This document shows positions 13,550 through 51,771 of a stretch of DNA of 64,000 nucleotides, piece by piece. How positions within the stretch are numbered: position 1 is the first letter of the stretch; every line of letters begins with the position of its first letter. The notes under the pieces are model-generated. The model was given only the letters and a program-made list of their open reading frames with translations, did no database searches and had not been told where the DNA came from. The position numbers and the translations under genes are program-made. Source of the DNA: Okamejei kenojei (lineage: Eukaryota); NCBI GenBank assembly GCA_035221665.1, contig JAVHYY010000086.1, positions 62,001 to 126,000 of the forward strand. The letters run 5' to 3'.

Positions 13550-13619
13550 CGGGTACACCAATTGCTGCAAGAATCGGGTAATACACAGATTCTATATCCA
13601 CGATCCCACTATAATACAT
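13550..13619 (-). pseudogene. GPCR copy 1, exon 1 (MYYSGIVDIESVYYPILAAIGVP)
   Basis: ATG at 13619, 70 nt, donor G|GTAGGT. The phase-1 join G|TG AAT restores the frame with exon 2 and completes TM1. Confidence 0.85.
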
Positions 13620-25977: not shown

Positions 25978-26885
25978 TCAATTTGCCGATTTAAATATCT
26001 TTCCAGTGCAACGGATCGGATATGTTAGCACGCGGAACAGCTCCTCTCTGAACTTGCTCTGTGTCACGATGTAAATGGCCGTGTTGGTGCAGGTGCTCAG
26101 CAGCTGAAGCATACATCCAACCCTTTCAAATTCTTCCAAAGGGTTTGTCCAGGCCTTGCGCGTAAACACTTTCAAACTTCGAACCGCAATAAAATGTACA
26201 ACACTTGTGGCCCAGAGCAGGATGAAGCAGCTCGAGATTGCCAGAAGTAAAACGACCGACCGTCTGCGGTTCACCATCTCCTGGTCTTTCTTTTTCTCCC
26301 CACCGCTGATGTGTCGGAGGTTCCTGCGGACCCGACTGGCCACGGAAATACGTCTGACAGTGAGCGCGTTAAACAACAAAATCAGGCAGAATGGAATGAC
26401 CGGGGTGAACAACTGTTCGCTCCAAGAGAACACCGTCCATTCGGGACGCGTATAAAAGTGTACAATTTTGAGGCAGCCGTGCTCTCCATCCATTCCTTGA
26501 TAAGAAACGTATGCGAAGGGCAAGGGAAGGTTTTTAAGAAAGACGAACAGGCTCACTGTCAGGATAACAATCCACGTGGTTCTCTCGGTGCAATATTTCG
26601 TTTTCACATTCTGAGTAGAAATCGCAACAAAGCGATCAAATGTGAAAGCGACTGTGAACCATACAGAACAATCCACCGCCACGGGAGCGAGGTACAATAT
26701 TATTTTGCACACAGGAGTGTAGGGCAAGGAAGCAGGCCACAAATAAATATCAGCAATCCGATGAAATATCACGTCAATGAGAAGCACAGAGAGGTCCGCG
26801 GTCGCCATGGCTAGCATGTAACGAGTGATGCACTTGGAGAGGCCGCATTTGCCACGGGACAGTATCACAATCGCCATCAGATTCA
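25978..26885 (-). CDS. GPR139/GPR142-like class A GPCR, copy 2, exon 2 (intact; 325 aa with exon 1)
   Basis: Open 908-nt exon after ttcccag, with seven hydrophobic segments when joined to exon 1. TM2 AMATADL, TM3 Cys and DRF, ECL2 Cys, TM7 CTNTAIY and helix 8 SKFR are present. Confidence 0.92.
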
Positions 26886-27926
26886 CTGGGAAGGTAAAAA
26901 AAAATAAACTGATGAATTGTGTGGGATATGTGTCGGTGGATGAGGGTTATTTAAACGTGCGCATATTTGGGACGATCAACGATTAAACGTTTGTTATAAA
27001 GATGTTCAATCGTCAGCAAATTATTAAATACATGATTATCAAAATTAGTGAGATTTCCGTGTCTATGTATCTTCACATATTTATGCCAACCGTTTAATAT
27101 TGATGCTTTGTTATCCCGGCTTGATCGCTGCAGCTACAGTCTCTGTTCTATGTACTTCAAAAACCTATCTTAAAACTGCCTCCCGAGCCGAGGGGGAACC
27201 CGTTTGTTCACACTGACGTTTTTTGTTGAGTAAGTTGTTCATACGATCTTCAAATCGGTCTATGTGAAATTATCCTTGTGAAATGTTAGGTGCTTAACAG
27301 CAAATGCTGTGCCAAATTACTGGACGGGTCGTGTTTTTCTTTCTACAGAGTGCACTACGCACTGCGGAACAGGTAGTCTCACCCACAGCGAGGACGCCGT
27401 GTCGCTTGCCCTTCCAACAGCGCAGGTACTGGGTATCGGTTGTAGCAAAAATCCGTGGAGGCTAAATTTGTACCAGTCTATGAGCGGTCATCCGTCAAAG
27501 AAGCCAACGCGTTTCCTCTCTCCTACAATGTTAATTGGTTCATTTTAGCATAGTTTAGATGTACAGCACCGAAGCGAGTACTCTGGTCTATCGAATCCGC
27601 GCAGACCAGCGATCCAAGCAGACCAACAATATTCGAAACACATTAGCGACTTAAAACAAATATGTACTAAATCAATTAACCTATAAACCTGTCTGTCTTG
27701 GACAGTTGGAGGAAACCGAAGATCTCGGAGAAAAGCCACCCTGGTCACGAGGCGAACCTACAAAGTCTGTAAAGACACGCAACCGTAGTGGGGAGCGAGC
27801 CCTGCGCCATCTACCGCTGTGCCATCGTGCAGCACTTAACCCTGCCGGGTTATTCCGTATGTTCTCTTAATCTTTACTCCTCTGCGCTTTTCAAACAGTC
27901 AATGAGATGTACCGACAATTACCTAC

Positions 27927-27996
27927 CGGGTACACCAATTGCTGCAAGAATCGGGTAATACACAGATTCTATATCCACGATCCCACTATAATACAT
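27927..27996 (-). CDS. GPCR copy 2, exon 1 (MYYSGIVDIESVYYPILAAIGVP)
   Basis: ATG at 27996, 70 nt, donor GTAGGT at 27926-27921, in phase with exon 2. Confidence 0.87.
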
Positions 27997-28859
27997 TTTA
28001 ATGCGACGGTCTAGGCGATCACTCCTGGTGCTGCCATTCAGCGATTGTCAGCGAAACAAACCAACTTCTGACACATTTATAAAGTAAATAAAGAAGAAAA
28101 CAGGCAATTAGATTCCATCCCTGTGGACATTACCAACATACTTTGGAACAAACATGTACTTGTTGTCAATATAATATTCAGAAATCACGATCATGCGGGC
28201 GACCGCTCCATACATTTCCAACAGCAGGCAGTGAAACATGATTTCAAAAAAAATCTAACGCACGCGCAGTAAAGTTGCTTGCGAATGTTCTGAGTAGCGA
28301 TTAATTTCCTTGAACCTTACATCCGATGATGGGACAAGGAAAGCTGTCATTTCTGGTTTCCACATGTGTAACTTGAGTTTCCAGGCGGCGACAGCAGCGC
28401 CAGAGCCTAACGCAATATCAGCACCTGAGCATACCAACTGGGTAACTAGAGGCAGTTTTCTCGGAAAAGTGACTAATGGGGCGAGAGAGCAACAAAAGAG
28501 AGAAGAACCGTAGAGTTTATCAAGCATTAATAAACACGACCATGTAAATTAATTTTCGTGGCAGCGTGGCTTGTCGGCTCCGTCCCAGGGTTAGCAGCCA
28601 GAAGTCAGCAATAATGATAAGGACACGGAGGTTCATAAGGTCATAAGGGTTCGGAGTAAAATAAGTCTATTCTGCCCATTAAGTCTCACCCGCCATTCAA
28701 TCATGAATTATCTATCCCACCCCCCCCCCCTCCTACCCAATTCTCCTGCCTTCTGCACATAACCACTGCCACCTGTACTAATAAATCATCAATCTATCTC
28801 CACGTTTACATATCCACTGCATTAGCCCCCACAGCATTCGTGGCAAAGTATTGCACAGA

Positions 28860-31035
28860 TTGAACAAAGGGGATTATGAATGCATCAGTTGGACAAATGG
28901 GACCATGAAGGCATGAGAGAAGACCTGGCCAAGGTAAACTGGAAAGAGATCCTCGCAGGAATGACGGTGGAACAGCAATGGCTGGCATTTCTGGGCATAT
29001 CCGGAAGACGCAGGATCATTTCATTCCAAAAAGAAGGAACGATTCTAAGGGGAGTAGGAGGCAACCGCGGCTGACAAGAGAAGTTAGGGATAGTATAAAA
29101 ATAAAGATAAGATATATAACACTGCAAATAATAGCCGGAAGCCAGAGGATTGGGAAACTTCCATTGGACAACAGAAGGAAACAAAACGGGCAATACGGGC
29201 CGAAAAGATGAAGAACGAGGGGAAGCTGGACAGGAATAGAAGGAAGGACAGTAAAATGTTAAGGGAAAAAGTGTAGCAAATTCAAATGTGGCTCCCTTGA
29301 AGGCAGACACGTGTAAAATTATTATGCGTAATAATGAAATGGAAGAAGCGTTGAACAGGTACTTTGGATTTGTCTTCCGTATGGACGACACAAACAATCT
29401 CCCAGATGTACTGGAGGGCAGAGGATCTCAGGGGGTAGAGGAACTGAAAGGTATTTCCATTGGGCGATGAATAGTGTTGGGTATGTTAATGGGACTAAAG
29501 GATGATAAATCCCCTGGGCCTGATGGTCTGCATCCCAGGGTCCTCGGGGAGGTGGCTCTAGAAACAGTGAAGGCATTGGTGATCATTTTCGAACGTTCAA
29601 TAGATTCAGGATCAGTTCCTGTGGATTGGAGGATAGCTAATGTTATCCCACTTTTCAAGAAAGGAGGAGAGAGAAAACGGGGATTTACAGACTAGTTAGC
29701 CGGTCTTCGGTGGTGGGAATGATGCTGGAGTCAAGTATTAAAGAGGTAATAATGGATCTTTGGTATAGTAGTAAAAGGATTATTTCAATTCAACATGGGC
29801 TTATGAAAGGGAAATCATGCTTGTCTATTTTTTGACGATGTGACAAATACAATGGATGAAGGGGAGCCAGTTGATGTAGTGTATTTGGACTTTCAGACAG
29901 CCGTTGATAAGGTCCCGCACGGCAGGGAGTAAATTTAGAGCACATGGTAATGGGGTTAGGGTGTTGATATGCATAGAAAATTGGTTGGCAGACAGTAAAC
30001 AAAGTTTAGAAGTGAACGGGTCCTTTTTAGAATGGCACACAGTGGCGAGTGGAATGCAGAAAGGCTCGGTGTTGGGGCGCAACTGTTCGCCATATATATT
30101 AATGATTTTGAAGAGGGAATTATGAGCAACACGGGCAAGGGTGCGGATGACACAAAGTTAGGTGGCAGTGTGAACTATGAACAGGATGTTAGGAGGTTGC
30201 AGGGTGACCTGGACAGGTTGAGTGAGTCGGCAGGTGCGTGGTAGATGCAGTATAATATTGATCAATGTGAGGTTATCCACTTTGGCGGCAAAAGTAAGGG
30301 GGCAGATTATTTGCTCAATGGGGTTAGGTTAGGTTAGGTTAGGTAAGGGGGAGGTGCAGCGAGATCTGATTGTCCTTGTACACCAGTCACTGAAAGTCGG
30401 CGTGCAGGTACAGAGGGCAGTGACGAACGCTAACGGAATATCGGCCTTCATAACAAGAGGATTTCAGTATAGTACTAAAAAGGTTCTTCTGCAGATGTAT
30501 ATGTCTCTGGTGAGACCACATCTGGAGTATTGTGTACAATTTTGGTATCCTAATTTGAGGAAGGACATCCTAGTGATTAAGGGAGTGTAGCGTAGGTCCA
30601 CGAGATAGATTCCTAGCATGGTGGGACTGGCATATGAGGAGAGCTTGAACAGACCGGGCTTGTATTCACTGGAGATTAGAAGGGCGGGGGGCGCTTATAG
30701 AAACATATACAATTATAAAAGGACTGAACAAGCAGGATGCAGGAACAATTTTCCCATTGTTGGGCGAGTGCCGAACCAGGGGACACCGTTTTCGAATAAA
30801 GGGGAGGCCACATAAAACTGAGGTGAGAGTTGTGAAATTGTGGATTCTCTGCCACAGATGGCAGTGGAGGTCAAATCACTCGAAGGATTTAAGAGAGAGC
30901 TCTTGGGAGTGGAATCAGGGGATAGGGGGATAAGGCAGACACGGGTTATTGATTGGGGACGATCAGCCATGATCACAATGAATGGCGGTGCTGGCTCGAA
31001 GGGCCGAACGGCCTCCTTCTGCGCCTATTGGTATG
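28860..31035 (+). mobile_element. Decayed CR1 family A at the position equivalent to 14690-21595, without DIRS
   Basis: Same position relative to GPCR exon 1 and the same junction sequence after the tail; KSPGPDGLHPRVL motif. Confidence 0.85.
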
Positions 31036-31159
31036 TTTCTATATTTCTATGATTCTATTCGCCACCCTCTGACCAAATACATTTCCCATCGTCTCCATCC
31101 GCAAAGAACGTCCTTTAATTCTGAATTAATTACCTCTATTCCGATACTTTCTCTTTTTT

Positions 31160-31485
31160 GAGAGAGAAGGGGAGAGAAGGGGAGAGAGAGAAGGGAGAGA
31201 GAGGGGAAGGGAGAAGAGGGGGAGAGAGAGAAAGGGGAGAGAGCGAAGGGGAGAGAGAGACGGCGGAGATAGCGAAAGGAGGGAGAGAGAAGGGAGAGAG
31301 AGGGGAGAGGAGGGGAAGAGACAGGAGAAGAGAGAGAAGAGTGGAGAGAGAGGAGGAGGGAGAGATACGAGGGGAGAGAGAGGAGGAAAGATAAGAGGGT
31401 GGAGAGAGAAGGAGAGAGAAGGCAGAGAAAGAGGGGTGAGAGAGGGGAGAGAGAGAAGAAGGGGGAGAGAAGGTGAGACGGGAGC
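31160..31485 (+). repeat. Polypurine (GA-rich) low-complexity tract
   Basis: About 325 nt of almost pure G/A. Confidence 0.95.
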
Positions 31486-32179
31486 GTGGGGTTTATTTTC
31501 CCATACAAGCCATAGGTGACTGGGCAATCTGAACCCAAGCACCAAGTTGAAAGCGGCCGAAAATGTGCATCCCTCGGGACAGCCCCCACTCCCTCAGGCA
31601 GTGTGGTAGCATCCGTGAAACCGATCGACATTGGACCTTTCGTTGGAGACTATTCATCGCGTTAGTTACTTAGTCAGTTATTTAATTAGGCCAGTTTATT
31701 GTTACGTGTACCGAGGTACAATGATAAGCTCACACTGCGTGCTATCCAGTCGGAAGAAAGACATTACATGAGTAAATCGAAACATTTACAGTGTATAGAT
31801 GCATGATAAGGGAATAAAGTTTAGTGCACCAAAAGCCAGCACCGTCCGTGCAAGGATAGCCAGAGGATCACTAAAGAAGTACATAGTTCAGCACTGCCCT
31901 CTGGTTGTTGTAGGACGATTAATTTGAACCGAAATATTACCCATTCCTTCTCTCCAGAGATGCTGCATGGCATCCGACATTTTGTGTCTACCTTCGGTGT
32001 AAACCAGCTGTAGCATTTCTTTCCTGCGGAGTAGAACGGTACTCAGGACGAGACCGTTGGAAGTGAGTAACCCACAACGGTAGAATGTAACGTTTACTTT
32101 TGCAATGGTGCTGTCCAGTCGGCGGGTCTCATTCCTACCATGACGCGTTGCAGTGAGCAAGCGCAATATACTCACGTTA

Positions 32180-32741
32180 TTTCATTTGACAAACTCCGGT
32201 CGCAATACGGGCCGAAAAGATAAAGAATGAGGGGAAGCTGGACAAGAATTGAAGGAAGGACAGTAAAATGTTAAGGGAAAAAGTGTAGCAAAGTCAAATG
32301 TGGGTACCTTGAAGGCAGACACGTGTGAAATTATTATGCGTAACAATGAAATGGAAGAAGCGTAGAACAGGTACTTTGGATTTGTCTTCAGTATGGACCA
32401 CACAAACAATCTCCCAGATGTACTGGAGGGCAGAGGATCTCAGGGGGTAGTGGAACTGAAAGGCATTTCCATTGGGCGATAAATAGTATTGGGTATGTTA
32501 ATGGCACTAAAGGATGATAAATCCCCTGGGCTGATGGTCTGCTTCCCAGGGTCCTCGGGGAGGTGGCTCTAGAAACAGTGAAGGCATTGGTGATCATTTT
32601 CGAACGTTCAATAGATTCAGGATCAGTTCCTGTGGATTGGATGATAGCTAATGTTATCCCACTTTTCAAGAATGGAGGAGAGAGAAAACGGGGATTTACA
32701 GACTAGTTAGCCGGACTTTCATTTGACAAACTCCGGTCGCA
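32180..32741 (+). repeat. 512-bp copy of 29190-29703 flanked by a perfect 25-bp direct repeat
   Basis: TTTCATTTGACAAACTCCGGTCGCA at 32180-32204 and 32717-32741. Confidence 0.9.
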
Positions 32742-33342
32742 GCAGAACAGCGCTGAGCACGTTCACACAGTCCGTACTACGCTTAGTTTCGGCATTTGTG
32801 GCTGTACCATCGAGATCACATTTGACCTTCTAGGTCTGAATGCGTTGTCAGACCTGTGCCCCTGAAGGGCTGGTTCCGGCGGGTGGCTGCTCGTATTTGG
32901 AACATTCATCGGGGACCAGGGGTGAAGCTCTATAATTCAGGCTCCGACTGTGGGTTTCCAGGCCTGAAGACTCGGAAATATCATGCGGATCTTCATCGCA
33001 CCGTTCTTCGTCGTTACATCGCTGCTCGGTTAATATTTCCGTCCCCAAAATGTTGTATTTGTATCTCGTTGCTACGTAAATTACATTGGAGAAAGGGTGA
33101 TTAGGTTGATTGAAGAAATTATGTTAATTGATATGGACACAAATGACCTACTGGAGAAAAGGAATGTGTGACGTTTCGAAACACATAAGAAGGATCTCGA
33201 TCCGAAACGCCACCCATTCCTTCTCTCCAGAGATGCTGCCTGTCCCGCTAAGTTAATCCAGTTGTTGTGTCTATCTTCGGTTTAAATCAGCATCTATGTG
33301 TTCCTCTCTATACATGTTAACTGACATATGGTTTACTGTTAG

Positions 33343-33645
33343 ACTGGAGCATCCAGGACTCGGTGGCACAGTCGGTCTCTGAAATGACATTGGAATAAAG
33401 ATGACATCGCATAGAATGCTCCTTGAGACGGCAGGGACAATCCTGAATGCTTATTATTCGTACAGATAGCGACGTGGGCAGCCGCATGCGATTGTGTTTC
33501 GGATTACGGCAAGGATACCAAAGAGAAATGGTGATCTCACTGACCGATTCTCTTCTATGTACATTAAGACAGCAAAGACCACCCAGTTAATGATCCGCGC
33601 GTCCGAGATTACCGACGCCGCCACGTATCTTTCTGCAATGGACTC
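33343..33645 (+). pseudogene. Decayed TCR alpha/delta-type V exon (V-A)
   Basis: After acceptor tgttag it reads QDSVAQSVSEMTLE, then IECS, YRxRRGQP and DRFSSMYIKTAKTTQLMIRASEITDAATYLSAMD (V-set D-x-A-x-Y-x-C motif with Cys lost). Several stops and frameshifts. Confidence 0.7.
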
Positions 33646-33684
33646 CACCTTGCTGAAGAAACACGGCGGACCTGCAAAAAAAAC
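33646..33684 (+). promoter_or_regulatory. Degenerate 23-RSS of V-A
   Basis: CACCTTG + 23 nt + AAAAAAAAC immediately after the V end. Confidence 0.55.
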
Positions 33685-34039
33685 CACCGCAAGCAATTGT
33701 GCACGGTGCCGCCAGATGGCGTACTCACTACTATTAGGGAAATACGTAAACAATGAAATAGCAACAAAGCAATTCGTTCTCCGGGGTTCAAATTGTAAGT
33801 TTATCGATACAATCTCTGACTGCGAACAATTTCTACTTCGAACTGCTGGCCGATCTAAGTTACCTTCATCAAATATCCTCAGTCCTAAACAGACGACTAT
33901 CTTTTAACTGAACTCCATCGGAAGACTGTCGTGAAAGGGAGGGGAGAAAGAATATCAAAGTATTTTATTGTGTTTTCCAGCCATCGGATTAAACAAGGAC
34001 ACCCCAGCACGACGATACACGACAGTCATGGGAAATAGC

Positions 34040-34850: not shown

Positions 34851-37800
34851 TGAATTTGACTTTGGCTTTATCACCACGTAGTTTTCGAACTCTGCCTGAA
34901 TCTGGCGCCCTCGTCTGGTCTTTGGTTAATGGCAATGAAGAGGTGTCTCAAGAACTTAAAGAACTGCTGATGGTCGTAGTGGCGCACCGTATCGTCGCCC
35001 TGCTGCACCACAGGGACAACATGTGTATACAGGTAAAGGTAGAAACATAGAAACATATTAAAACAGGTGCAGGACTAGGCCATTCGGTCCAGCACCGCCA
35101 TTCAACATGATCATGTCACATGCTGAGAGAATGGAGTGGCTGGGCTTGTATACTCTGGAGTTCAGAATGATAAGAGGGGATCATTTTTGAAACATATAAG
35201 ATTATTAAGGGTTTGGACGCTCTCGAACTTTAAACATGTCCATATGTTGGGGGAATCCAGAACCAGGGGCCACAGTTTAAGAATAAGGGGTAAGCTGTTT
35301 AGGACGGAGACGAGGAAATACTTTTTCCTACACAGAGTTGTGAGTCTGTGGAATTCTCTGCCTCAGAGGGCGATGGAGACTGCTCTCTGGATAGCGGAGT
35401 CAGGGGATATGAGGAGAAGGCATGAACGGGGTACTGATTGGGGATGATCAGCGATGGTCATATTCAATGGCGGTGCTGGCTCGAAGGGTCGAATGGCCTA
35501 CTGCACCCATTGTCTGTTATCTGTTTGTCTATAATTGTATATGCTTCTATTAGATCCGCTCTGATCCTTCTAAATTCCATCGAATAGAAGCCCAGTCGAC
35601 TTGTTCTTTCATGATACGTCAGTCCCGCCATCTCGGGAATTAAGCTAGTGAACCTGCGCTGCACTCCCTCACTAGCAATAATGTCATTCCTCAAATTAGG
35701 AGACCAGAATTGCGCAGAATATTCCTAGTACAGTCTGAAAGACTTGGGATACAACGCAGTCAGTGTGTGCGGGCATCTTTTAACGATTCTGCGCAAACGG
35801 GACTACGGTCACGTGTGTTGTTCACTAATCGCTCCCGTTCGGGCTCCTTCTTTCATTAAATGCAGCTGATGGTCTTGAGAAGCAATACTTTATATTTTTC
35901 TATTTGATGGGGCGTCCATGAAAAGCTATTGTTTTAACATAACATTATTATTTCTACTGCGTGCACTCATTAAATAAGAAGACCATAAGTGATAGCAGTA
36001 TTAGGCCATTCGGCCCATTAAATCTACTCCGCTATTCAATACAATACAATAAAATTATACTTTATTACCGAAGTATGTTTTCCAACGTACGAGGAATTTC
36101 ATTTACCAAGTTAGTCATACAAATAATATATAATGCAACAGAACACACGAAATACATTTTAACATCAACATCCATCACAGTGACTCCTTCACATTCCTCA
36201 CTGCAATGAAGGTAAAACCAAACGTTAAATCTCTTTCTTTCTTTGTCCTGCAGCGGTCGGGGGTCTCAAACCTTCAGTTGACGGGAAGATTTTACTACCG
36301 CAGCTGGCGGTGGGTCTTCCTCGTCAGGCCGATCAGCTCCTACGTCGGTGGGGAATTTCAGTTACCACGCGCCGGCGATCTGACTTCGGGTCTAGGCTTG
36401 TCGAACGTCGTGCGACTTCCGGTGCTTCCCGACACGGTCTCTCCAGAGACTGCGAGCCCTTGAGGTTAAAGTCTGCAGGCCGTGGTTGGAGCGTCGATCC
36501 AAGGCAATTCCTCTAAACTCCAGCGAGTACAGGCTCGTGCCGTTAAGCGCTGATTATATGCTCACCCATTCCTCCCCTCCCTCTTCAGGGCCAGCACAGC
36601 CTTCATCAGATGTGTTGCCCAAACCTTCTCACAATACCTCACTCGCATTTTACAGGCCATTTCTCGATTTGCAGCTCTACCCACGTTACATAGCACAACC
36701 GCTTTAATATTACGTGTCGAAAAGAACTGCAAATGCTGGTCGAAAAAATCTGCTGGAATAACTCGGCGGGCCAGGCAGCATCTCTGGGGAGAAGTAATGG
36801 GTGACGTTTCGGTTCGAGACCCTTCTTCGGACTCTAGATTCTTCTAATATGAATAACGTTTTACGAATCAGTTTGCCCAAAACGCCGGTAATCGGAGTAT
36901 TCTTGGACTTTCGGCACGTCTGGCTGGTTCCGCATTTCTATTTGATCACGGCCGATTGCTCCAATTCAATCCCCCATCCCCCTTCATCCACATATCACTG
37001 GATCCCCCCGAGCCCCAGGAACAGATTATACAACCGTTTCAACATAGTAAATGGTGCGCTCTTCAGTTTGTATCCATATTCGCACAAATTCATCAGCTAC
37101 ATTGGCCTTGGCTATGAGAATAACACTATAAAATTATTGTTGGGAAACTGAGAAAAGTGCAGATGCTGGATTACATTAAAAATGCACAGAATGCTGGAGT
37201 AACAGAACGGGTCAGGCAGAATATCTGGAGAAATGGATGTGGTTTCAGTTCGCGGCCATTCTTCAGACTGATTGTGGTGAGGGAAGAGAGGATAACAGTC
37301 GAAAGAGAGGAGCGTTAGCTCAAAGCCTGGCCATATTTAAGGGGACACAGGAGAGAAGGGGAGTTGATAGTCAACGAGTTGGATAAAGCCCAGAGATGAA
37401 AAGACAAAAGCCCTGACACAAAAAGGAGTATACAGCCGGCAATTGCGAAGCACCTTCCACCCTTCTCCCCCCCAGTCCCAACCCGACCAGCACCACAATC
37501 AGTCTGAAGAATGGTCCTTAACCGAAATTTCATCCATCCATGAGATGCTACCTGGTTCGCTGTGTTTCGCCAGCACGATGGAGGGAGGAAAACGTACGTC
37601 TCTTTATGAGAGGCTGCTAGAAATATCCTCGGACATACGCACCAGTTGATGAGAGAACAGTTGTAGACATTATATGTCCAGCAGTGCATGTTATAAAGTG
37701 CCGCGTGGTTGGCTGCTCTGGAACGGTAGCACGAGATCCAGGTGGTTCTTGCTAAATGGGTAGAAAATCAGCATTATGGGAGAAAGCACAGTGCGGAAGA

Positions 37801-39413
37801 TATTTTTTTCGGACTGGATGCCTGCGACTAGTTGTGTGCCTCAAGGATCAGTTCTGGTCCCATTGCTGTTTGTCATTTATACCGAAGATTTGGATGAGAA
37901 TGTAGAAAGCATCATTAGAACGTTTGAAGATGACCCCACGGTGGGTGGAGTCGTAGAGAGCGAAGATGATTATCAAAAGCCACCTGAGGATCTTGATCAG
38001 TTCAACAAGTGGGCACAGCAATGTATGTTGAATTTTAATGAATATAAGTGAGAGGTTTTGGTTTTCGGGAAGACAAACAGGGCAGGGCCTTTCCGGCGAA
38101 TAACAGTGCCGTGGGGAGCACTGCAGGGCCACGGACTCCAACTTCCCGTCACGCCAACTATCTGCTCCCTGAAAGAAAGATGGAAATGCTGTTTTCTTTC
38201 ATATTTTGTGCATGTTTATTCCGTAGGTACCTTGAAGACAAAAGTGAGGTGAACGTCTGTGATATGTCTGTAATATTCGCAATGTTCGTGAAATTTCCGA
38301 GGAGTAGTGCTCACAATCGGCCTGGCGACTAGGGCTCGTAACATCGATGGACTCCTGGAGTGCAGTCTGTTTTGAGTTGTGTGTACTTGCTGAGCACTTC
38401 AAAATGAAAAATGAGTTAGGGCAGGATATTTAACATGAGCGACATTGTGTTTTTATTCGTAACAGTAAATTCAATCTGCTGTCTGCCATGGTCGTCTCCC
38501 TAGACCTTGCTGTTTTCAATCACAATCACAGCCAATGGGTGCTGTGAACGAAAGGACCCATTGTGGAAAAAAATCTATTGTTGCAACAACACGATGCAGC
38601 GCTTAAAGTCCTTGGTTTGGCCACATTTGTTGCGTTTCCGACAGTTCCCATCGTCTTATTGATGGAAAAGCGTGCAGGTTTTGGTTAGGATGCAGGCTAG
38701 GATTACTAGAATACTCGGTGGAAGGAACTGAAGATGCTGGTTTAAACCGAAGTTTGAGTATCTCTAGCTTGATACCCAGACCACTACTTGGATTAAAGGG
38801 TGCTAACTTTCAGGATAGTTGGGGCACAGTTGGTTTATTTTCCATGGATTGTCAGGGGCTCCGATCTGATTAAAGCATATGAATTTATGAGAGATATGGA
38901 AAGTGTAGGCATTCATAACGGTTGTTTCTATCACAAGGTAGAATTATAAAAGACTAGATGTCCTACCATTCAGGTGAAGCGGGCAAAACGCAAACGATAA
39001 GTACGGGTTATTTACGGAGAAAGCGGTAAATACATGGAACATGCTGCCGGGGATGGTGATAGAGGCGATACGACAATGGCTTTTAAGAGGCTTTGTGATA
39101 AACACACGGACATGCACGGAACGGAGAGATATGAGTGATTTACAGGAGCTACGATTAGTTGAGCTTTGCATCATGTTCGGCACAGACATTGTTGGCTGTA
39201 CGGCTTGTACCGAATATGTCCGTATTTCTGTTCTATGTTATCCTTCGCAGCTGATGTTTTCTGAAACAGGGAGCAATATTATGTAAAAGTGTGTTTTGTC
39301 CGCATGTCAAAACGTTCCTTTTGTTCGGCGGTCAATCTAAAAGGTTAAGCATGTTTCCCTTCCATCGTCTAACGGCCAACTAGTTTTCTTTTGACACGGA
39401 ATCTATTTCACAG

Positions 39414-39722
39414 GACAGGGCGCTGGGGAATCGGTGACTCAGAGCCAGCCTTTACTGAGACCGAGAAACGTGACTTGGTGAAACTAACCAGTACCTACAA
39501 TACTGCAGCATCCATCTATCATTTATATATGTATCGACAAATTGCCGAGGGAAATCTTGAGTTTATTGTGCTCATACGATCTTGGGACCAACGGGAAACA
39601 CTGGGAGACATATTAGAGAAACGGTTATCCACGGATCTCCAGAAAGCGACTTCAATTGTCAATTTAACTATTTGGGGTCTCCAGCTGACAGACTCTGCAG
39701 TGTATTACTGCGCCCTAAGTTC
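39414..39722 (+). pseudogene. TCR alpha/delta V pseudogene (V-B)
   Basis: Acceptor tttcacag, then GESVTQSQP, a frameshift, and LVKLTSTYNT..YHLYMYRQ..NLEFIVLI..VNLTIWGLQLTDSAVYYCALS. First Cys is Ser and the conserved Trp is Met. Confidence 0.88.
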
Positions 39723-39761
39723 GACAGTAATTGGAAGCAGTCTCTGCGCAGTGCAATAACC
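39723..39761 (+). promoter_or_regulatory. Degenerate 23-RSS of V-B
   Basis: GACAGTA + exactly 23 nt + GCAATAACC. The critical first C of the heptamer is mutated. Confidence 0.75.
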
Positions 39762-42700
39762 GCCTGTGGTGAGCCTTTCCTGTCCTTTTCTGTGTTTCCC
39801 GGGGGTTCGAGAGCTCAGATGTGGCAGCCACGTGCAGAGCGCCAATAGGTTCGCAGACACACACAGACAGGAAACCTCGGATATACGTGTCAGCCACAGC
39901 ATCCTGGTGAACTGGAGATACTAAGCAAACTTCAAACGATCCGATTTATTTCAATTCCATGATCCAGACCAATAAAATGTAAAGTGAATGATTGCTAATT
40001 CAACTCCGACGCTGCGGAAACATCTGGTCAGCGGCATAAAACAATAGCCCCTCCCGCTTCCTTCACTCTGTCTCCTGACAGTTAACCAAACAATTATCGA
40101 TACTAGTATATAGCCTCCAATACAATTGGCTCTTATCTTGTTTAACCGTTTAGTGCGGCAGGAGAATGCGGTTAGGAGGGAGAGGTAGATCCTGGTTGAA
40201 TGGCGGAGGAAACTTGATGGACCGAATGGCCTAATTCTGCTCCTATCTCTTATGACCTTTTAAAACTTTAGTTTCTTGGGACCTATCTCTGCGCCTATTA
40301 CACAGTGCATTCAAACTGCTGATATTCCAGAATTCTTGAAAATATGTATAGCATTCTGGGGCAGTGTTGTGCACATGTACATATTGATCAGATGCAATCT
40401 ATATTGCTGCTGAAGCTAAGACATTATTGGCCCATTGAGGTTTTGAAGAAGGAGTGATTCCGTGAGTGGACTGACTTCCACAGGTGTTTCCGTTCAGTTA
40501 AACGGGGGGATATCAATTGCAATGCAACGTTGGACTCGACCGCAGATTGGGTCGGAGACAAAATATGCAGCAAAGAACGTCAGATGCTGGTTTAAACCGA
40601 AGGTAGACACACATTTCTGGAATAACTCAACGGGACAGGCAGCGTCTCTTGAGAGAAGGAATGGGTGTCGTTTCTGGTCGAGACCCTTCTAAGGGTCATT
40701 CCTTGGGTCGGAGCCAAATGGACTAAGTTGAAGCGAGAACAAAATGCCTTTCACTATATTCACAATGGAATTGGTCGAATTTCCTGTGCGAATGGGATCA
40801 AGGGGTATGTGGATGATGCAGGAAATGGGGTCTGAATTCGGATGATCGAAACATAGAAACAGAGAAACATAGAAAATAGGTGCAGGAGTAGGCCATTCGG
40901 CCCTTCCAGCCTGCACCACAATTCAATATGATCACGGCTGATCAACCAACTCAGTATCCTGTACCTGCCTTCCCTCCCTTTAGCCACAAGGGCCACATCT
41001 AACTCCCTCTTAAATATAGTCAATTAACTGGCCTCAACTATCTTCTGTGGCAGAGAATTCCAGAGGCTCGCCACTCTCAGTGTGAAATATGTTTTCCTCA
41101 TCTTGGTCCTAAAGGAATTCTCCCTTATCCTTAGACTGTGACCCCTTGTTCTGGTCCTCCTCAGCATCGGCAAAAATCTTCCTGCATCTAGCCTATCCAA
41201 CCCCTTAAGATAAACAATGATCTAGTACATTCAATGCTGATGCTGAGTAAATCATTTTTCTCCATATGAAATAGATGTGAGATCAATCAAGCTTTTACTG
41301 CCTTGTGCGAGATCGCATGTTACGATCATATTAGGTGTTTTGAAGAAATAACCCTAAAAGTTTAGTGATGGAAAAGTCGTAGATATTGTATGTTCGGCAA
41401 GGCATTTGATAAACTGCCGCGTGGTTGACTGCTCTAGAATGGTAGAACGAGTTCCAGGGGGACCTCCTAACTGGGCGGAACATTACCTTCAAGGAAGGAA
41501 GCAGATTAGGATGGAGGAAGATACATTTTCAGACTAGCGGCCTACGACAAGTTATGTGCCTAAAGGATCAGATCTGGGCGCATTGCTGTGTGTCATTTAT
41601 ATCGAATATTTGGATGAAAATGTAGAAGGCAAGACTACAAATTTGCCAGATGACACAAAAGTAGATGCGAAGCGAAGATGATTATCAAAATCCACCGGAG
41701 GATCTCGATCAGTTCAACAAGTGGGCTGAGCAATGGTTGATAAGTTTTAATGAAGAAAAGTGAGAGGTGCTACATTTTTAGAAGTCAAACACGGCAGGAC
41801 ATTCCCGGCGAATGGTAGGGCCGTAGGGAGTGTCGTATTGCAAAGTCTAGAAAAGGGCATGACCCGGATTGCTGTGATCTCTTGGGGCGTCGTTGATGGG
41901 GAAAACTCTGCCTTCGACATAGTGTGTTGATTCCATCCCTATGTAGTTCATTAGGTTTCTGTACGTTAGGAATGCCATATGAGGCCATAGAGTAAACGGT
42001 CAGGATACGTTCTGCAGTACATGTTGATATTTAATGGGAGATTCGGAGAATGCAGGATCTCTTAAAACCTCTATGAAAGTATAGGCGCTGGAGTGTCAAC
42101 CTGCTGTCGAAGTTGTATCAGCACAGCTCCAATTCGGTCAAGGCAGTGCATGCCCACGCACTACAACTTTCGGCCACGCCAGCTATCTGCCCCCTTAAAG
42201 GAAAGATGGAAATGCTGCTAAATTTCATCTTCGGTGCATGTTTATTGCGTAAGACAATCGTGACGTGAACGGAAGACAACTTTGTTTCCCACATGTTCTG
42301 TGATTTGTCTTTAATATTCACAACGTTCGTGAATTTTCCGAGGAGTCAGAGATTAGTGCTCACAATCGACCTGGCGAATGTCACTCCCAACCGCCATGGA
42401 AGCCTCGAGTGTAGTCTGTTTTGCGCTGTGTGTACTTGCTGAGCACTCCAGTCTGGAAGATGTGTTATGGCAGGAGAGTTAACATGTGCGCAATTGTGTT
42501 TTTCTTCTTAGCAGGTACTTAAATCTGCTGTCTGCCATGGTGGTATCCCGGGACATTGCTGTGTCCAATGCCCACGACAGCCAATGTGTTCGGTGAACCA
42601 ATGGACACATTGTAGAAAAAGCTGTTATTGCTATAGCGATGGAGCGTTAAAGGACCTTGGTTCAGCCGCATGGGTAGCGTTGATTACAGTTCCCATCGTC

Positions 42701-43391
42701 TTATTGAAGGGAGAGCGTGGAGGTTTTGGATAGGATGCATACTAGGATTACCAGGAAGGATCTGCAGATGCTGATGTAAACCGACAATAGTGTCGCCAGC
42801 TTCATTACCAGAATACTACTTGGATTGGAGGGTGCTAACTTTCAGGGGTGTTTGGGCAGAGTTGGCTTGTTTCCCGTGGATTGTTAGAGGCTGAGACCTG
42901 ATGGAAATATATGAACTGATGGTGAAAGTTAATATTCTGATGGCAAAGTGAAAGCAGTCAGAAGGTTTTGTGCTTCCCAAGGTGGAAATATTATAGAGTA
43001 GGAGGGGCAAAAATCAAACGAAACGTACGAGTTATTTATGGAGAGAGAGAGATAATACCTGTGACATGCTGCCGAGCATGGTAATAGAACCGATACGACA
43101 GTGGCTTTTAAGAGGCCTTTAGATAAACACAAGGATATCGACAATGTGTAGGAGGAGATACGATTAGTTCAGCTTGGCATTATGTTTGGCACGGAGATTG
43201 TGGGCAGAACGGCTTCATCCCGTGCTGTCCGTTTCTTTGTTCCATGTAACCTTTCGCAACTGATGTTTTCTAAAGCAAGGAACAATGTTGTGTGAAAGTG
43301 TGTTTTGTCCGCATGTCGAAACGTTCCATCTATTCCCTTCCACCGTCTAACGGCCGTTTTTTTTTCTCTTGACCCGGAATCCATTTCACAG

Positions 43392-43699
43392 GGCAGGCCG
43401 CTGAGGATTCCGTCACTCAGAGCCAGTCTTCACTGTGACCAGGAAAAAGTGATTTGGTGAAACTAACCTGTACCTACAATACTACAGCATCCGCTTGTTG
43501 TTTATATTGGTACCGACAAATTGATGCGGAAAATCCTGAGATTATTGTGCTGATACAGTCCTTGGCCCAACAGGTACAACGAGGAGACATATTAGAGGAT
43601 CGATTCTATGCGGTCTCCAGACAGCACTTCAATTGTCCATTTAACTATTTCGGGTCCCCAGCTTACAGACTCTGCTGTGTATTACAGCGCCCTGAGTTC
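43392..43699 (+). pseudogene. TCR alpha/delta V pseudogene (V-C), paralogue of V-B
   Basis: Acceptor tttcacag, then EDSVTQSQSSL*, LVKLTCTYNTTASACCLYWYRQ, a frameshift, and VHLTISGPQLTDSAVYYSALS (second Cys lost). Confidence 0.88.
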
Positions 43700-43738
43700 C
43701 ACAATGATTGAAAGCAGTCTCTTCGCAGTGCAAACACT
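43700..43738 (+). promoter_or_regulatory. 23-RSS of V-C
   Basis: CACAATG + 23 nt + GCAAACACT. Confidence 0.78.
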
Positions 43739-46700
43739 GCCTGTGGTGAGCCTTTCCTCTCCTTTCTGTGTTTCGCAGGAGTTCAAGGGCACAATGTGGC
43801 CGCCATGTGGAGAACGCCGATAGGTGCTCAGTAGCACGCTGACAGGACACCTGAGAAACCTCGTATGTACTAGTGAGCCGCAGCATACTGGTGAAGTCGA
43901 GAAACAACCAAGCTTCAAACGACGCAACTTCTTTCAATTCCAACATGCAAAAAACTAAAAAGTAACGTGAAATGTAGCTAACTCAACTCCGAATCTTGCT
44001 CCGAAACCTCTGGTTACCGGCAGAAAACAATACCCTTTCCTAACTCAGCCTTCTCCTAGTCAGCCAAATCTCTCCATGTTGGCATCTAACCTCTAATACA
44101 ATGGGCTCTTATCTTGTTTAGCTGTGCTCCGCGCGACATCTGATCAAAGGACTTGCAAAATGTCAAGCAAGTAACATCCACTTACTCTCAATCGTCTATT
44201 AAAGGTGTTGCTTCTCAAACAACCACGGCAGTTTCCGACAGTTTTGGGATTAGGTTCGATCTACCCTTAGCAAACCCATGGTAACTGTGTCCTATTTTAT
44301 CGTGTGGTTCCAAGCACGCCGAAACCGCATTCTTAATAATGAAGTCGGAAATCTTACCAACCACTGAATGCATCGCAGTGTCGCCACTGTATCCGAAGTG
44401 TGTTCATACACGGTTATCTCTCTCTGGTCCACACCGCCATGGAGAACGTTGGTAATTTCTCATCGACACTGTTATTCTAACCTTTCCTATGCCGTACGTT
44501 ATGTCTTTTGCAAAAATCCTGCTTAATTTGTCCAATCTCAAGGCAGAAACAATGAACTGCAGATGCTGGTTTAAAAAAAAAGAAGGCTTAAAGTGCTGAA
44601 TTCTCCTATTCTTATTCTCCAGAGATGATGCCTGACCCACTGTGTTACTCCAGTACTGTGTCTTTCACCTGAAGAAGAGTTCGACCCGAGTTCGAGTCCA
44701 GCCCTCAGCAGATGCTGCATGTCTTCTGCGGTTAACAACCATCTTGTGTTTTCCTCAAAATGTCAACAACTGCGGTCTTATATGTCTCCATGATGTTAAT
44801 TTTGTCTATGCTTTTAGTTATAACGGTTAACAATTAGATCAGGCAACAACTTTGATAGAGAATTTACAGAAATTGACAAATGTTTTATATAAACCTACGT
44901 TATAATCCAGCATCTACAGTTCTTTCATATACAGCATAAAGACAAAGTCCCTTTTTATTTTATTTCATTGTCATCAAAGTACCTTGGATAATGTGTTATC
45001 CAGTGTCTTAACATTTCTAAAGAATTTACATAATTTTCGTAAGAATAACATTATAATTTCTAACAGTTTGTGAAACTTTTGCATGGATATATTAGAAACT
45101 ATTTTAAAGCAGAGATGGACATTCTTGATTGGTAAGCGTGTCCGCCGTTGTGAGAAGAAGACGGGGGAGTGGCGTTGGGAGCGAGAGATGGATCAGCCAT
45201 GATTGAGTAGCCAAGAGGTATTGATGATCCGAATTGCTTAATTCTGCTCCTAGAACATTATGAATCTAAGAAAAGTCGCAAGCCTTCCATAGTACATTAT
45301 GGAGAGCGTTTAAGAAGAATCTACATTGGAGTTCTGACGCTACTTTGTTATTATATCTGCCATTTTTAATTGATCTTCAGTTCCACTGCTTACAGATAGA
45401 GGGGTGGCACAGTGGAGCATTTGGTACAGCTGCTGCCCCACAGTGCCAGAGACCCTGGTTAGATCCCGACATTGTGTGCTATCTCTGTGGAGTTTGCACA
45501 TTGTTCTTGTGACTGTGTGTGTTTCCTGTCGGTGCTCTGGTTTGTTCTCTCATCCTAAACGTGTGTGAATTTGTAATTTAATTGACCTCTGTAGAATTGG
45601 CCCCAGTATAGAACTACTGCAACCACGTGTTTGAAGTTTTGTATGGACTCGGTGGGCAGAAGGACCCATTTCCATGCTGCATCTCTAAACTTAAATAAAG
45701 ATGGTCATATAACGATAGAATTGCTTCCTTGAAGCACCAGAGTTCAATTCTGTCCACGGGTGCCGTCAATACAGAGTTTGCAAATTCTCCCCTTGACTGC
45801 GTGAGTTTTCTCCGGGTGCTTTGGTTTCTTCACATTCATCAAGGATGTACCGGTTTGTACTGTACAATACAAACTGTGAAGGCATGATGCCATAGGTGAC
45901 TGGGCAATCTGAACCTAAGCGCCAAGTTGAAAGCAGCCGAAGGTGTGCATTCCTCGGGAAAGCCCACTCTCCCACGGCCACCATCCGCGGCCTGCGTGGG
46001 GTCTGAACTAATTGCTGACAAGTCCCGCCCCCCGGCAACGCCAAGTCCGTTATTGGACTTTTCTGTTAAGCGGGAGTCGGTCGGTTGCCCTGTATGCGCC
46101 GCCGCCTTTCACGGTAGGTGGCGTATCGACAGAGCGGCCAGCCGGTAAGATTGCTTTTAGGCGACGTAACCTTTCGGTTCATAGGAGTTTAGGCGCCCCG
46201 CCCATTCGGTTACTTTGAATTTAGGCGTCCCATCTTTTCGGTTAGTCGACGTTTCGTCTTCGGACTCTTTCTTGCTATTGAAGCAGTGCAGCGTAGGTTC
46301 ACGAGGTTAAACCCCGGGATGGCGGGGCTGTCATATGAGGAAATATTGGGAATACTGGGCATGTTATCATAGGAATTTAGGATGAGAGGGGATCTTATAG
46401 AAACAAATAAAAGTATAAAAGGACTGGATAAGCGAGAGGCCGGAAATGTTTTCCCAATGCTGGAGGATCACAGAATCAGGGGGCCACGGTCTAAGAATAA
46501 ATGTGTGGCCATTTAAAACACGTTTTCAGCCAGAGAGTTGTGAATCTGATGAATTCCCTGCCATTGACTGCAATAGCGGCCAATTATCTGGATGAATTTA
46601 AAAGAGAGTGCGATAGAGCTCTGGGGGTTCGCTGAATCTAGCGATATGTGAAGAAGGCAGGCACATGTTTCTGATTGTGGATGATCAGCCATGCTACCAA

Positions 46701-48863
46701 TGAATACAGGTGCTGTTCGAAGGGCCAAATGGCCACCTCCTGCACCTATTTTCTATGTTTTCATGTTTCTATATTTCCAAATGCAAGTAAACGTCGGATG
46801 TCGCTGTGACAAGGGAAAGAACATGGGGAGGCTCAGGGTGATGTCACACCGCAGGGATTCATTGACCGTCGAATATATTCGCGCATTAGACACCGATGGA
46901 CATTCGCAAATTAACGCAAATGACACTAGATGAAGACGGCAACAATGGTGATGGCGGTGGAGATAAACTGCAGACACACACACACACACACACACACGCT
47001 GATTGTCAATTACGAATATTTGGCTAACCCTAATTCATTCTCCCAAAATTCACATGGTCTTCAAGTTTTTCAGGTTTAAAGTTCAGTTTATTGTCACATT
47101 TGACTGGAGAGACTTGGCTTGTACTCGCTAGAATTTAGAAAACTGAGGGTGAATCTTATAGAAACTTACAACATTCTTAAGCGGTTGGATAGGCTAGATA
47201 CAGGAAGATTGTTCCCGATGTTGGGGAGGTCCAGAACAAGTGGTCACAGTCTAAGGATCAGGAGGAATTCCTTTAGGACCGAGATCAGGAAAACATTTTT
47301 CACACAGAGAGTGGTGAGTCTCTGGAATTCTCTGCCACAGGAGGTAGTTGAGGCCAGTTAATTGGCTATATTTAAGAATTAGATGTGGCCCTTGTGGACA
47401 AAGGGATCAGGTGGTATGGAGAGAAGGCAGGTACAGGAAACTGAGTTGGATGATCAGCCATGATCATATTGAATGGCGGTGCAGGCTCGAAGGGCCGAAT
47501 GGCCTATTCGTGCACCTACTTTCTATGTTTCTATGTTTCCATGTACCAGTTAAGGTACTGTGAAATTTGTCATACCATACAGCCATACTAAGTAAAAAGC
47601 CACAAAACACACTACCACATAAAACCGAAGATGTACATTCACTACAGTGGGTTCCATATTCCCCACTGTGATAGAAGGCAATAAAGTTGAATCAGCTTCC
47701 TCTTCCTCTCCTGCGGTCGAAACAGTGAAGCCATCCGCAGTCGAAGAGATCAAAACATCCGCAGGCGACGATCGAAGCCCCCGTCAGGATGATCGAAACT
47801 CCCCGCGGCGGGGCGGTTGAAACTCTCCCCGCGGCATGGAGCTCCCGAGTCGGCTTCTTCTTACCAGAGACCGCGGGCTTCACGATGTTAAAATTTACAG
47901 GCTCCGACGTTGGAACTTTGATGCCCGACAAAGGGATGGCAGACTTCGCGATGCGAACGTCTCAACAGACTGTTGGCGAGTCATCCACTGCTGATATGCT
48001 ACCATTCATCTACCATTCATCAACGAGGAACAATGTGCGATGGCCAACCAACCGGGTCACCACCAAATTTAGTTTAGTTTAGTGTACTTTAGTTTAGTTC
48101 AGCTCAGTTTAGTTTAGTTTAGATTCGTGTAGATTAGTTTAGCGCGGAAACTGGCCCTTCAGCCCATCGAGTGCGGACCCAACAACGATGCCCGCACACT
48201 AACATTATCTACACAAACTAATGGGCAATTTACATTTATACCAAGCCAATTACCCTGCAAATCTGTACCTATTTGGAATGTGGGAGGAAACCGAAAATCT
48301 TGGGGAAAACCCATGCATGTCACGGGGAGAATGTACAAACTCCGTACAGACATGCACCCGTTGTTAGCATCGAACCCGGGACCCGGGTCTCTAGCGCTGT
48401 AAGGCAGCAACTCTAACGCTGCGCCACCGTGCCGCCATGGCATGTTTAAGGAAACAAGAGCACATGGTCCAACACAACATTGTCGAAGTCGCGGAGCAAT
48501 ATGACCAAGGATTCATTTACGCGCTGAATTGCCACATCGCGCTATATAACACGGATAGCCCCATTACATAGACGTTGTTTCACAATCGCTGATTTGATAG
48601 ATTTTTTTATTGCACTTTGCATCAAACATCAACGCTATCTGCTTGTGACTATAGTTCAGGGCAAAAGTATATAAATACCTGGATCTCTCTCTCTCTCTCT
48701 CTTTCTTTCTGCTGAAGCTAAACACAGAACGAAAACAACGCGATGAATTCCTGCTATGGAAAATCCACCCCCCCCCCCCCTTCGACAAACACAATTATCA
48801 ATGAGCGCATGAAGATTATTCGGAAATTGTAAATCAATAAAATAGCATAAACAAATGGAACCA

Positions 48864-49100
48864 TCGAAGGTAGACAAAAATGCTGGAGATATCACCGGCT
48901 GGGGCAGCATCTATGCAGGGAATGAACAGGTGACGATTCGGGTCGAGACCCTTCTTCAGCAAGCCACACATTAATCTGAAGAAAGGTCTCCATCCGAATC
49001 GTCACTTTTTCCTTCGGTCCATAGATGCTGGCGAACCAGCTAAATTCCACAAGTATTTCTGGCTACCTTCGATTATTCCGGCATCTGCAGTTCTTTCTTA
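48864..49100. repeat. Palindromic Penelope-derived terminal repeat pair
   Basis: Inverted arms (gaaggtagac..cttcttcag / ctgaagaa..ctaccttc). Related copies lie near 9645-9860, 11005-11200, 12300-12730, 15605-15740, 33150-33310, 36720-36835, 37150-37575, 40570-40690, 44545-44770 and 50865-51050. Confidence 0.75.
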
Positions 49101-49178
49101 AACAATTTAAATTTTTGTATTTTCACATAAATCAGATGCCCAAGCTACGCACACGTTGATGTGATATTATTTTAAATA

Positions 49179-50086
49179 TCACTTTACCAATTGTCCTATC
49201 TTTCCAGTGCAACGGGTCGCATATGTTAGCACATGGAGCAACTCATGTCTGAACTTGCTCTGGGTCACGGTGTAAATGGCTGTGTTGGTGCAGGAGCTCA
49301 GCAGCTGAAGCATAACTCCAATCCTTTCCAGTCCTTCGAAAGGGTTGATCCAGGCCTTGCGCATAAACAATTTCAAAATTCGAAACGCCATAAAATGTGC
49401 GACACTTGTGGCCCAGAGCAGGATGAAGCAGCTCGAGATTGCCAGAAGTAAAACGACCGACCGTCTGCGGTTCACCATCTCCTGGTCTTTCCTTTTCTCC
49501 CCACCGCTGAGGTCTCGGAGGTTCCTGCGGGCTCGACTAGCCAAGATAATACGTCTGATGGTCAACGCATTAAACGACACAATCAGGCAGAATGGAATCG
49601 CAGGGGTGAACAACTGTTCAGTCCAAGAGAACACCATCCATTTGGGCTTTATGTAAAAATATATTGTTTTGACGCAGCCCAGAGACATGTCAATTGGCCT
49701 ATAAGGAACGTATGCAAAGGGCAAAGGTACGTTCTGAAGGCAGACGAATGGGGTCACTGTCAGGATAACAATCGACGCAGTTCTCTCGGTGCAATATTTG
49801 GTTTTCATCTTCTGAGTGGAAATCGCAACAAAGCGATCAAATGTGAAAGCGACCGTGAACCATACAGAACAATCCACCGCAACTGGAGCCAGGAAGAGAA
49901 TTATTTTGCACACAGGAGTGTAGGGCAACGAAACATGCCACCAATACATATCAGCAATCCGACGAAACATCACGTCAATGAGAAGCACAGAGAGGTCCGC
50001 GGTCGCCATGGCTATCATGTAAATAGTGATGCACTTGGATAGGCCGCACTTGCCACGGAGCAAGATCACTATCGCTAACAGATTCA
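49179..50086 (-). CDS. GPR139/GPR142-like class A GPCR, copy 3, exon 2 (intact; 326 aa with exon 1)
   Basis: Acceptor ttttttcccag|TGAAT, then an open 908-nt exon with the same 7TM motifs as copies 1 and 2. The N-terminal extension in the ORF track (50087-50219) is intronic. Confidence 0.92.
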
Positions 50087-51698: not shown

Positions 51699-51771
51699 CA
51701 GGGATACCGATTGCTGCCAGAATCGGATAATACACAAGTCCTATTTTCTTCTCGATCTGAATCCCATGCAT
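51699..51771 (-). CDS. GPCR copy 3, exon 1 (MHGIQIEKKIGLVYYPILAAIGIP)
   Basis: ATG at 51771, 73 nt, donor GTAGGT at 51698-51693, phase 1; homologous to exon 1 of copies 1 and 2. Confidence 0.87.

Follow-up and report, generated by a model that had tools for sequence, protein, structure and literature searches.

GPR139 has two exons, and identity between its zebrafish and human orthologues is 70% (PMC7318219). The residues critical for its activation are F3x33, H5x43, W6x48 and N7x38 (PMC5430874). The names GPR210A and GPR210B have been proposed for orphan receptors found beside GPR139 and GPR142 in coelacanth, gar and teleosts (Rinne et al. 2019, PMC6504862). These form small gene sets in that survey, and the words 'shark' and 'cartilaginous' occur 0 times in its main text. 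Here we describe three related G-protein coupled receptor (GPCR) genes, G12, G26 and G50, in a 64,000-nucleotide (nt) stretch of DNA from Okamejei kenojei (GenBank assembly GCA_035221665.1, contig JAVHYY010000086.1, positions 62,001 to 126,000, forward strand). This whole stretch is referred to as the window. The genes share with GPR139/GPR142 the two exons, a retained W6.48 and an atypical motif in transmembrane helix 7 (TM7); like GPR210A/B, they are orphan relatives of GPR139/GPR142 without a human orthologue. Unlike GPR139 and GPR142, they belong to a family that is multicopy and variable in the ligand pocket. Very probably they are tandem copies within a large expansion in elasmobranchs, a multigene recognition repertoire.

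The three copies were located by tblastn. They lie on the minus strand and are 76-77% identical to each other. Each has two coding exons: exon 1 (70-73 nt) encodes a short N-terminus and half of TM1 and ends with a GT donor, and it lies 1.0-1.6 kb upstream of exon 2 (908 nt), which is preceded by a CAG acceptor. Their parts, including the extracellular loops (ECLs) of G26, are as follows.

25978-26885, minus strand: G26 exon 2 (second half of TM1 to stop), intact; Pfam 7tm_1 E 3e-17
27927-27996, minus strand: G26 exon 1 (ATG, N-terminus, first half of TM1) with GT donor; intron of 1041 nt
26437-26514, minus strand: G26 ECL2, residues 148-173, a predicted beta-hairpin with a Cys expected to pair with C3.25
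26137-26175, minus strand: G26 ECL3, residues 261-273, segment set from class A anchors
49179-50086, minus strand: G50 exon 2, intact; Pfam 7tm_1 E 3e-15
51699-51771, minus strand: G50 exon 1; intron of 1612 nt
11290-12197, minus strand: G12 exon 2, with an in-frame TAG at 11872-11874
13550-13619, minus strand: G12 exon 1, encoding the same protein sequence as G26 exon 1; intron of 1352 nt

Spliced G26 and G50 are intact proteins of 325 and 326 amino acids (aa). The TAG of G12 is codon 132, in TM4, where G26 and G50 both have CTG. The difference amounts to two changes, which makes a true pseudogene likelier than a read error; G12 is a probable recent pseudogene. The sole Pfam match of the window receptors is 7tm_1 (57-63 bits, cutoff 30.5). 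They are class A (rhodopsin-like) GPCRs: all three carry N1.50, D2.50, C3.25 with the ECL2 Cys, D-R3.50, P5.50, W6.48 and N7.49/Y7.53, while P6.50 and P7.50 are replaced by Thr. An AlphaFold model of G26 has seven transmembrane helices, helix 8 and an ECL2 hairpin (pLDDT 83, pTM 0.81), and its nearest folds are those of the peptide receptors CCK, galanin and orexin (Z about 25, tied). The fold searches gave no ranking of receptor subfamilies, the matches being tied; FPR1/2 occur only among the tied matches. Flanking DNA is also shared between copies (12718-14552 with 27103-28920, 83%; 1277-1954 with 47818-48474, 81%), which indicates segmental duplication.

A search with G26 exon 2 gave 1,923 clusters (90% identity) at E<=1e-10 among 5,775 candidates. 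Taxonomy and names were taken from the best 120 of these. Within the best 120, 118 are named and all 118 are sharks or rays. The closest are the skates Amblyraja radiata and Leucoraja erinacea (79-84%). Nearly all of the 118 are labelled 'probable G-protein coupled receptor 139', so that the GPR139/GPR142 group is the source of their NCBI name. Heptranchias contributes 40 of the best 120 clusters, on 19 contigs, and Heterodontus 34, on 14 contigs; these per-shark counts may be inflated by alternative gene models. There are 98 matches at E<=1e-30 among 50%-identity representatives. Twelve divergent matches near or above E 1e-30, other than those of amphibians, coelacanth and teleosts, were looked up and are all elasmobranch (P0198, P0176, P0177 and nine more). 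No chimaera occurs among the named matches listed.

Many NCBI models of this family lack the very small exon 1 and either run on into the intron or are joined to neighbouring genes. A TM1 of the exon-1 type is present in only about 52 of the best 120, which makes public counts and N-termini unreliable. Some members go under a wrong label, as vasopressin V2, allatostatin-A or capa receptors (P0303, P0304, P0043, P0063, P0151), and name-based counts therefore underestimate the family.

Human GPR139 is the best PDB sequence match to the family profile (E 2e-18, 70 bits). However, a window receptor is only about 21% identical to it and scores 27 bits with phmmer. The window copies carry P, Q, W and S/C/V at the four activation positions (in our own numbering), so that only the W is kept. 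Orthology to GPR139 is ruled out on these grounds. Two other orthogroups score higher on the family profile (152-218 bits, against 70 for GPR139). Orthogroup A (P0226, P0275-P0294) is found in amphibians and sturgeon, scores up to 218 bits and has one cluster per species among 25 matches; no amniote or teleost is found among the 25 returned. Its members, among them Xenopus XP_031757816.1, are labelled GPR139 but are not orthologues of that gene, and have N at 2.50. Orthogroup B (P0233, P0318-P0435), of coelacanth type and also labelled GPR139, scores 183-198 bits and is present in sharks, fishes, amphibians and reptiles (turtles and squamates), with no bird or mammal among the named matches listed. 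It has S/C in place of W6.48. Orthogroup B is possibly a GPR210 of Rinne et al.; the main text of that survey describes no elasmobranch expansion (PMC6504862).

Quick maximum-likelihood (ML) trees place 19 sampled family members as sister to orthogroup A (SH-aLRT 99), with support of 82-83 for monophyly of the family itself. Orthogroup B is separate and has its own three shark orthologues. Subclades of the family hold both sharks and rays, and the family falls together with GPR139-like genes of vertebrates and amphioxus, away from the invertebrate outgroups. By this grouping, the two exons and GPR139 as nearest human relative, the window genes are placed within the broad GPR139/GPR142/GPR210 clade. 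Two candidate novelties of the family are ruled out by its relatives. Loss of P6.50 is not particular to it, as Thr is also present in 46 of 50 orthogroup B proteins. The short N-terminus, which the sequence-only reading of the window had singled out, is not special either: a stretch of just 13-15 residues precedes the TM1 YY/FY motif in the single-copy relatives too.

Differences among the three window copies are concentrated on the extracellular side. Conserved class A anchors set the segment boundaries, which agree with the AlphaFold model; residues 10-325 were compared (stop codon excluded). The ECLs vary at 27 of 50 sites, compared with 65 of 265 elsewhere (Fisher p=7e-5) and 8 of 41 in the intracellular loops (ICLs; p=0.001). 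ECL2 is variable at 16/26 sites, ECL3 at 7/13, ECL1 at 4/11 and ICL3 at 4/24. The sequence-only reading had proposed this loop bias, and for the trio it holds. The strings that it quoted are all present in the window, but only two of the three copies lie within 25978-50086, the interval to which it assigned them; its first ECL2/ECL3 pair (YIPIEL.../SLSLF...) is from stop-broken G12, at 11290-12197. It described core helices and intracellular segments as almost invariant. TM3 varies at 2/34 sites and TM6 at 5/31, but the description does not hold for TM4 (10/23), TM7 (8/24) or TM5 (10/32), and the intracellular C-tail varies too (11/28). Both ECL1 and the N-terminus were said to differ. ECL1 does; the N-terminus and TM1 of G12 and G26 show 0 differences in 34 residues, and G50 alone differs.

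Loops vary more than helices in most GPCRs. The comparison was therefore made with relatives at equal overall divergence, and included a pocket of 25 standard class A positions of our own choice, numbered from the anchors. The trio and 22 amphibian orthogroup A proteins both have a mean p-distance of 0.20 overall. At this matched divergence the ECL distance is 0.43 in the trio and 0.17 in orthogroup A, the ICL distance 0.13 and 0.33, the pocket distance 0.17 and 0.01, and the ECL/ICL ratio 3.3 and 0.52. The same contrast appears between 31 family members and 50 named orthogroup B proteins (0.40 and 0.41 overall), with ECL/ICL ratios of 2.0 and 0.93 and pocket distances of 0.63 and 0.26. The three shark orthogroup B proteins have a ratio of 0.75.

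Family-wide variability was measured as entropy in 44 near-full-length representatives at 50% identity, fragments excluded. It is highest in the pocket (2.69 bits) and ECLs (2.60), and lower in other outer-TM sites (1.86; p=1e-5 against the pocket), ICLs (1.52) and inner TM sites (1.13). Pocket entropy in amphibian orthogroup A is 0.04 bits. Among the 44 representatives R3.50 and N5.58 are constant (44/44 each), D3.49 is present in 43 and W6.48 in 42. Position 6.51 is K in 22/22 amphibian orthogroup A proteins, R in 50/50 orthogroup B proteins and R in aligned human GPR139; in the family it is not fixed (Y, N, L, F, S, Q and others). Thus divergence is mainly loop-borne in the trio and extends family-wide into the transmembrane pocket, which varies as much as the loops. 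In this respect the loop emphasis of the sequence-only reading was too narrow. Its broader proposal, ligand-side diversification on a fixed scaffold unlike that of a single-copy receptor, is supported by both control orthogroups: the family has diversified its ligand side in a way that its apparently single-copy relatives have not.

The same reading expected a ratio of nonsynonymous to synonymous substitution (dN/dS) above neutral in the loops. This was not found. Pairwise loop dN/dS among the three sequences (NG86) is 0.77, 0.95 and 1.05, with bootstrap intervals of about 0.4-2.4 that span 1; it is 0.34-0.47 in the intracellular half and 0.53-0.56 over the whole exon. Nondegenerate sites of ECL2 and ECL3 differ at 23-25%, compared with 17-26% in alignable non-coding flanks, and none of the three pairs has a significant loop excess over those flanks (best p=0.07). 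Positive selection as a conclusion from the window was dropped, since neither the regional NG86 test nor the comparison of nondegenerate with non-coding sites gave a significant excess. Core nondegenerate sites diverge by 6-10%, against 17-26% in non-coding DNA, and the intact copies are therefore under purifying selection on the G-protein side. Divergence of the trio loops is close to the neutral rate; whether selection was relaxed or diversifying cannot be told from three sequences.

Comparison of seven skate sequences suggests that loop types persist across species and are shuffled between paralogues. For example, ECL2 of G12 differs at 2/26 sites from P0004 and 3/26 from P0003, but at 11-12/26 from its own neighbours; at least this loop type has thus been kept across species. 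The outer TM6-ECL3-TM7 segment of G12 differs from P0004 and P0003 at 13-14/33 sites. G26 shares its N-terminus with G12 and P0004, and its ECL3 segment is closest to that of P0001 (6/33). Fourfold degenerate sites diverge less than non-coding DNA in two tests with G50 (p about 0.04-0.05, uncorrected), and one TM6 residue is common to all three window copies and found in 0/4 other skate copies. Strong gene conversion was not adopted as the cause of the fixed core, given the weak, uncorrected signals and the single shared residue.

The surroundings of the receptor genes, missed in the sequence-only reading, include T-cell receptor (TCR) segments with recombination signal sequences (RSSs).

38180-39761, plus strand: TCR alpha/delta-type V pseudogene 1 (V-set Pfam E 2e-5; top PDB matches TCR alpha chains, E 5e-11), with candidate leader 38180-38222, frameshifted V ~39414-39722 and degenerate 23-spacer RSS 39723-39761
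42206-43738, plus strand: TCR alpha/delta-type V pseudogene 2 (leader, frameshifted V, 23-spacer RSS), a tandem duplicate of V pseudogene 1
62643-64000, plus strand: broken NAR-TCR-like V-D-J cassette (VNAR and VH matches, E ~7e-6; NAR-TCR label inferred from layout), with leader, frameshifted V with RSS at 63115 and 63164, D with 12-RSS at 63578 and J with 23-RSS at 63946-63952

Both V pseudogenes lie between G26 and G50, each within one copy of a tandem unit (37655-40144 and 41371-44120, plus strand, 74-76% identity) and on the strand opposite to the GPCRs. In the cassette V, heptamer and spacer are tandemly duplicated (63115, 63164), with a good nonamer only at the second copy. A supporting V-delta is expected past the window end, beyond the cassette. 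NAR-TCR is encoded in the shark TCR delta locus (PMC5931798). The V pseudogenes and the cassette indicate that the window is most likely part of the TCR alpha/delta locus. Linkage to TCR or immunoglobulin loci is not general in the family. Among 47 long gene models scanned there is no V-set fusion, while six are fused to hemopexin, hexokinase, Na channel, trypsin, integrin alpha or uromodulin-like domains. The family therefore occupies many unrelated neighbourhoods, and the TCR location is one site among many.

The rest of the window is vertebrate DNA rich in long interspersed nuclear elements (LINEs). Young CR1/L2-type copies, 93-97% identical to each other, are found at 56033-59267 (minus strand), 5571-9250 (plus strand) and 59374-62102; one holds a 562-aa open reverse transcriptase (RT) frame at 56236-57924. 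RT/RNase H and tyrosine recombinase fragments at 17230-19656 (plus strand) resemble a DIRS-type retroelement. An assembly gap of 129 bases (812-940) lies inside a CA microsatellite.

How such a family is used can be considered from its shape. The family is a large, lineage-specific multigene set with birth and death, in which pocket and loops vary above a conserved intracellular face. We favour, at about even odds, a chemosensory repertoire in which numerous short peptides or small, water-soluble molecules would be recognised and all receptors would share one G protein. It would have begun with a receptor for one fixed ligand, marked by a basic residue at 6.51, that was duplicated in the shark-ray lineage, lost its fixed pocket and then spread by segmental and tandem duplication. 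Copies would turn over by birth and death, as the stop in one of the three window copies may illustrate, and segment swapping between paralogues would probably mix loop types. Ligand sets would differ from paralogue to paralogue, with recognition falling to ECL2, ECL3 and the tops of TM3, TM5, TM6 and TM7, and all paralogues would feed one pathway through the conserved DRF/ICL2/TM5-TM6/ICL3 surface. Among the Atlas feature neighbours of the protein are clusters in which a part of the members (17-74%) carries Pfam Srw. The srw genes are nematode chemoreceptors. External chemosensation is favoured because of these clusters, because L-Trp/L-Phe activate both GPR139, the closest relative in humans, and its homologue GPR142 (PMC7318219), and because known shark repertoires are small (PMC6368271, PMC10116579), with 65 chemoreceptor genes in the catshark (PMC6368271).

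Several points weigh against this reading. The catshark nose shows robust V2R expression (PMC10116579), and there is no GPCR among the 50 most specific genes reported for a brain and olfactory library (PMC11979771). P0025, the only read-derived match long enough to test, is without the exon-1 junction, and P0074 begins within exon 2; spliced-transcript evidence was dropped for these reasons. The loop dN/dS of about 1 does not exceed the non-coding rate and is equally well explained by relaxed constraint. Loops outpace the core even in the orthologue pair P0003/P0004 (ECL2 5/26, TM5-ICL3 3/77). Only 6 of the 25 pocket positions vary within the trio, and TM3 is nearly fixed; these three receptors may share ligands. 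The controls are orthologue sets rather than ordinary recent paralogues, and true GPR139 and GPR142 lie outside the trees. Finally, the probable TCR location of the genes would suit an immune role just as well.

An immune role is the main rival, although we consider it rather unlikely. The receptors would be an innate or immune-cell recognition repertoire, FPR- or MRGPR-like, carried by leukocytes or by nerves of the skin, and its targets in diversifying would have been peptides of microbes, venoms or host defence. The same ligand-side pattern would result, and the predicted ECL2 hairpin is of peptide-receptor type. The copies lie among TCR alpha/delta V genes and adjoin the NAR-TCR-like cassette, and the gene model of the divergent member P0177 clusters with a RING-domain protein. 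MAS1 and its relatives are reported as absent from sharks, so that the niche would be open (PMC8455134). However, the fused models and the many contigs show that the TCR linkage is not general. The GPCRs that flank tetrapod TCR alpha/delta are olfactory receptors (PMC3457774), and the locus therefore does not discriminate between immune and chemosensory roles. FPR and MRGPR receptors resemble the family in lineage-specific expansion with extracellular diversification, but they are absent from its 55 PDB profile matches at E<=1e-8.

Mostly neutral drift in copy number is improbable. In this case duplication-prone segments would multiply, the G-protein face would be constrained for folding, loops and pocket would decay, and conversion would keep the core alike. 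In its favour, loop dN/dS is about 1 and whole-exon dN/dS is high, one of the three copies is stop-broken beside V genes that are pseudogenes too, and there are weak hints of conversion in the fourfold sites, the shared TM6 residue and the segment-wise mosaic relations. Against it, the slow core marks purifying selection on the intact copies, and variability is concentrated at pocket-facing rather than other outer-TM sites, which decay does not predict; subclades hold both sharks and rays, and one ECL2 type is kept across skate species. We give about as little weight to a set of receptors for co-diversifying endogenous or conspecific peptides (neuropeptide, reproductive or pheromone). Such receptors would fit a MIP/FMRFamide/sex-peptide receptor ancestry and the peptide-receptor folds closest to the model. 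We know of no matching co-diversifying peptide family, no search for one having been made. GPR139 and GPR142 have a common origin with the MIP, FMRFamide, proctolin and myosuppressin receptors of protostomes (PMC8514136). However, receptors for a fixed endogenous ligand tend to have a conserved pocket, and the pocket is conserved in both control orthogroups.

The favoured chemosensory reading invites comparison with OR, TAAR, V1R/ORA, V2R and T2R receptors. The likeness is in many copies, clusters, pseudogenes, a short N-terminus and a variable pocket on a conserved signalling face; the family differs in belonging to another GPCR lineage (Pfam 7tm_1 alone) and in its two coding exons. To our knowledge, the GPR139 lineage has not produced an expanded repertoire elsewhere in vertebrates. 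No paper describing the elasmobranch expansion surfaced in a search whose coverage excluded most subscription papers, the catshark genome supplement and 12 of 24 whale-shark supplements. The family was not found in the supplement of PMC6504862 (one file) or in the 12 of 24 supplementary files of PMC8455134 that were searched. It is annotated in NCBI under a borrowed name but apparently undescribed as an expansion.

Sharks have been described as relatively poor in GPCRs (PMC8455134). Their OR, TAAR and V1R genes are very few, and their chemoreceptors number about 65 in total (PMC6368271). At least 34-40 distinct clusters in single sharks with the signature of a recognition repertoire would change the shark receptor count, whichever tissue uses the family. 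The invariant-pocket sister genes of amphibians and fishes are clean targets for the ancestral ligand of the GPR139 group. If the family is immune, it would be a new innate receptor system. If it is sensory, it would be a new, independent origin of a vertebrate chemoreceptor family. We tentatively suggest, at less than even odds, that sharks and rays have such a further family, recruited independently from the GPR139/neuropeptide-receptor lineage and hidden under the label 'probable GPR139'; it would number tens to more than 100 genes per genome and may exceed all their known smell and taste receptors combined.

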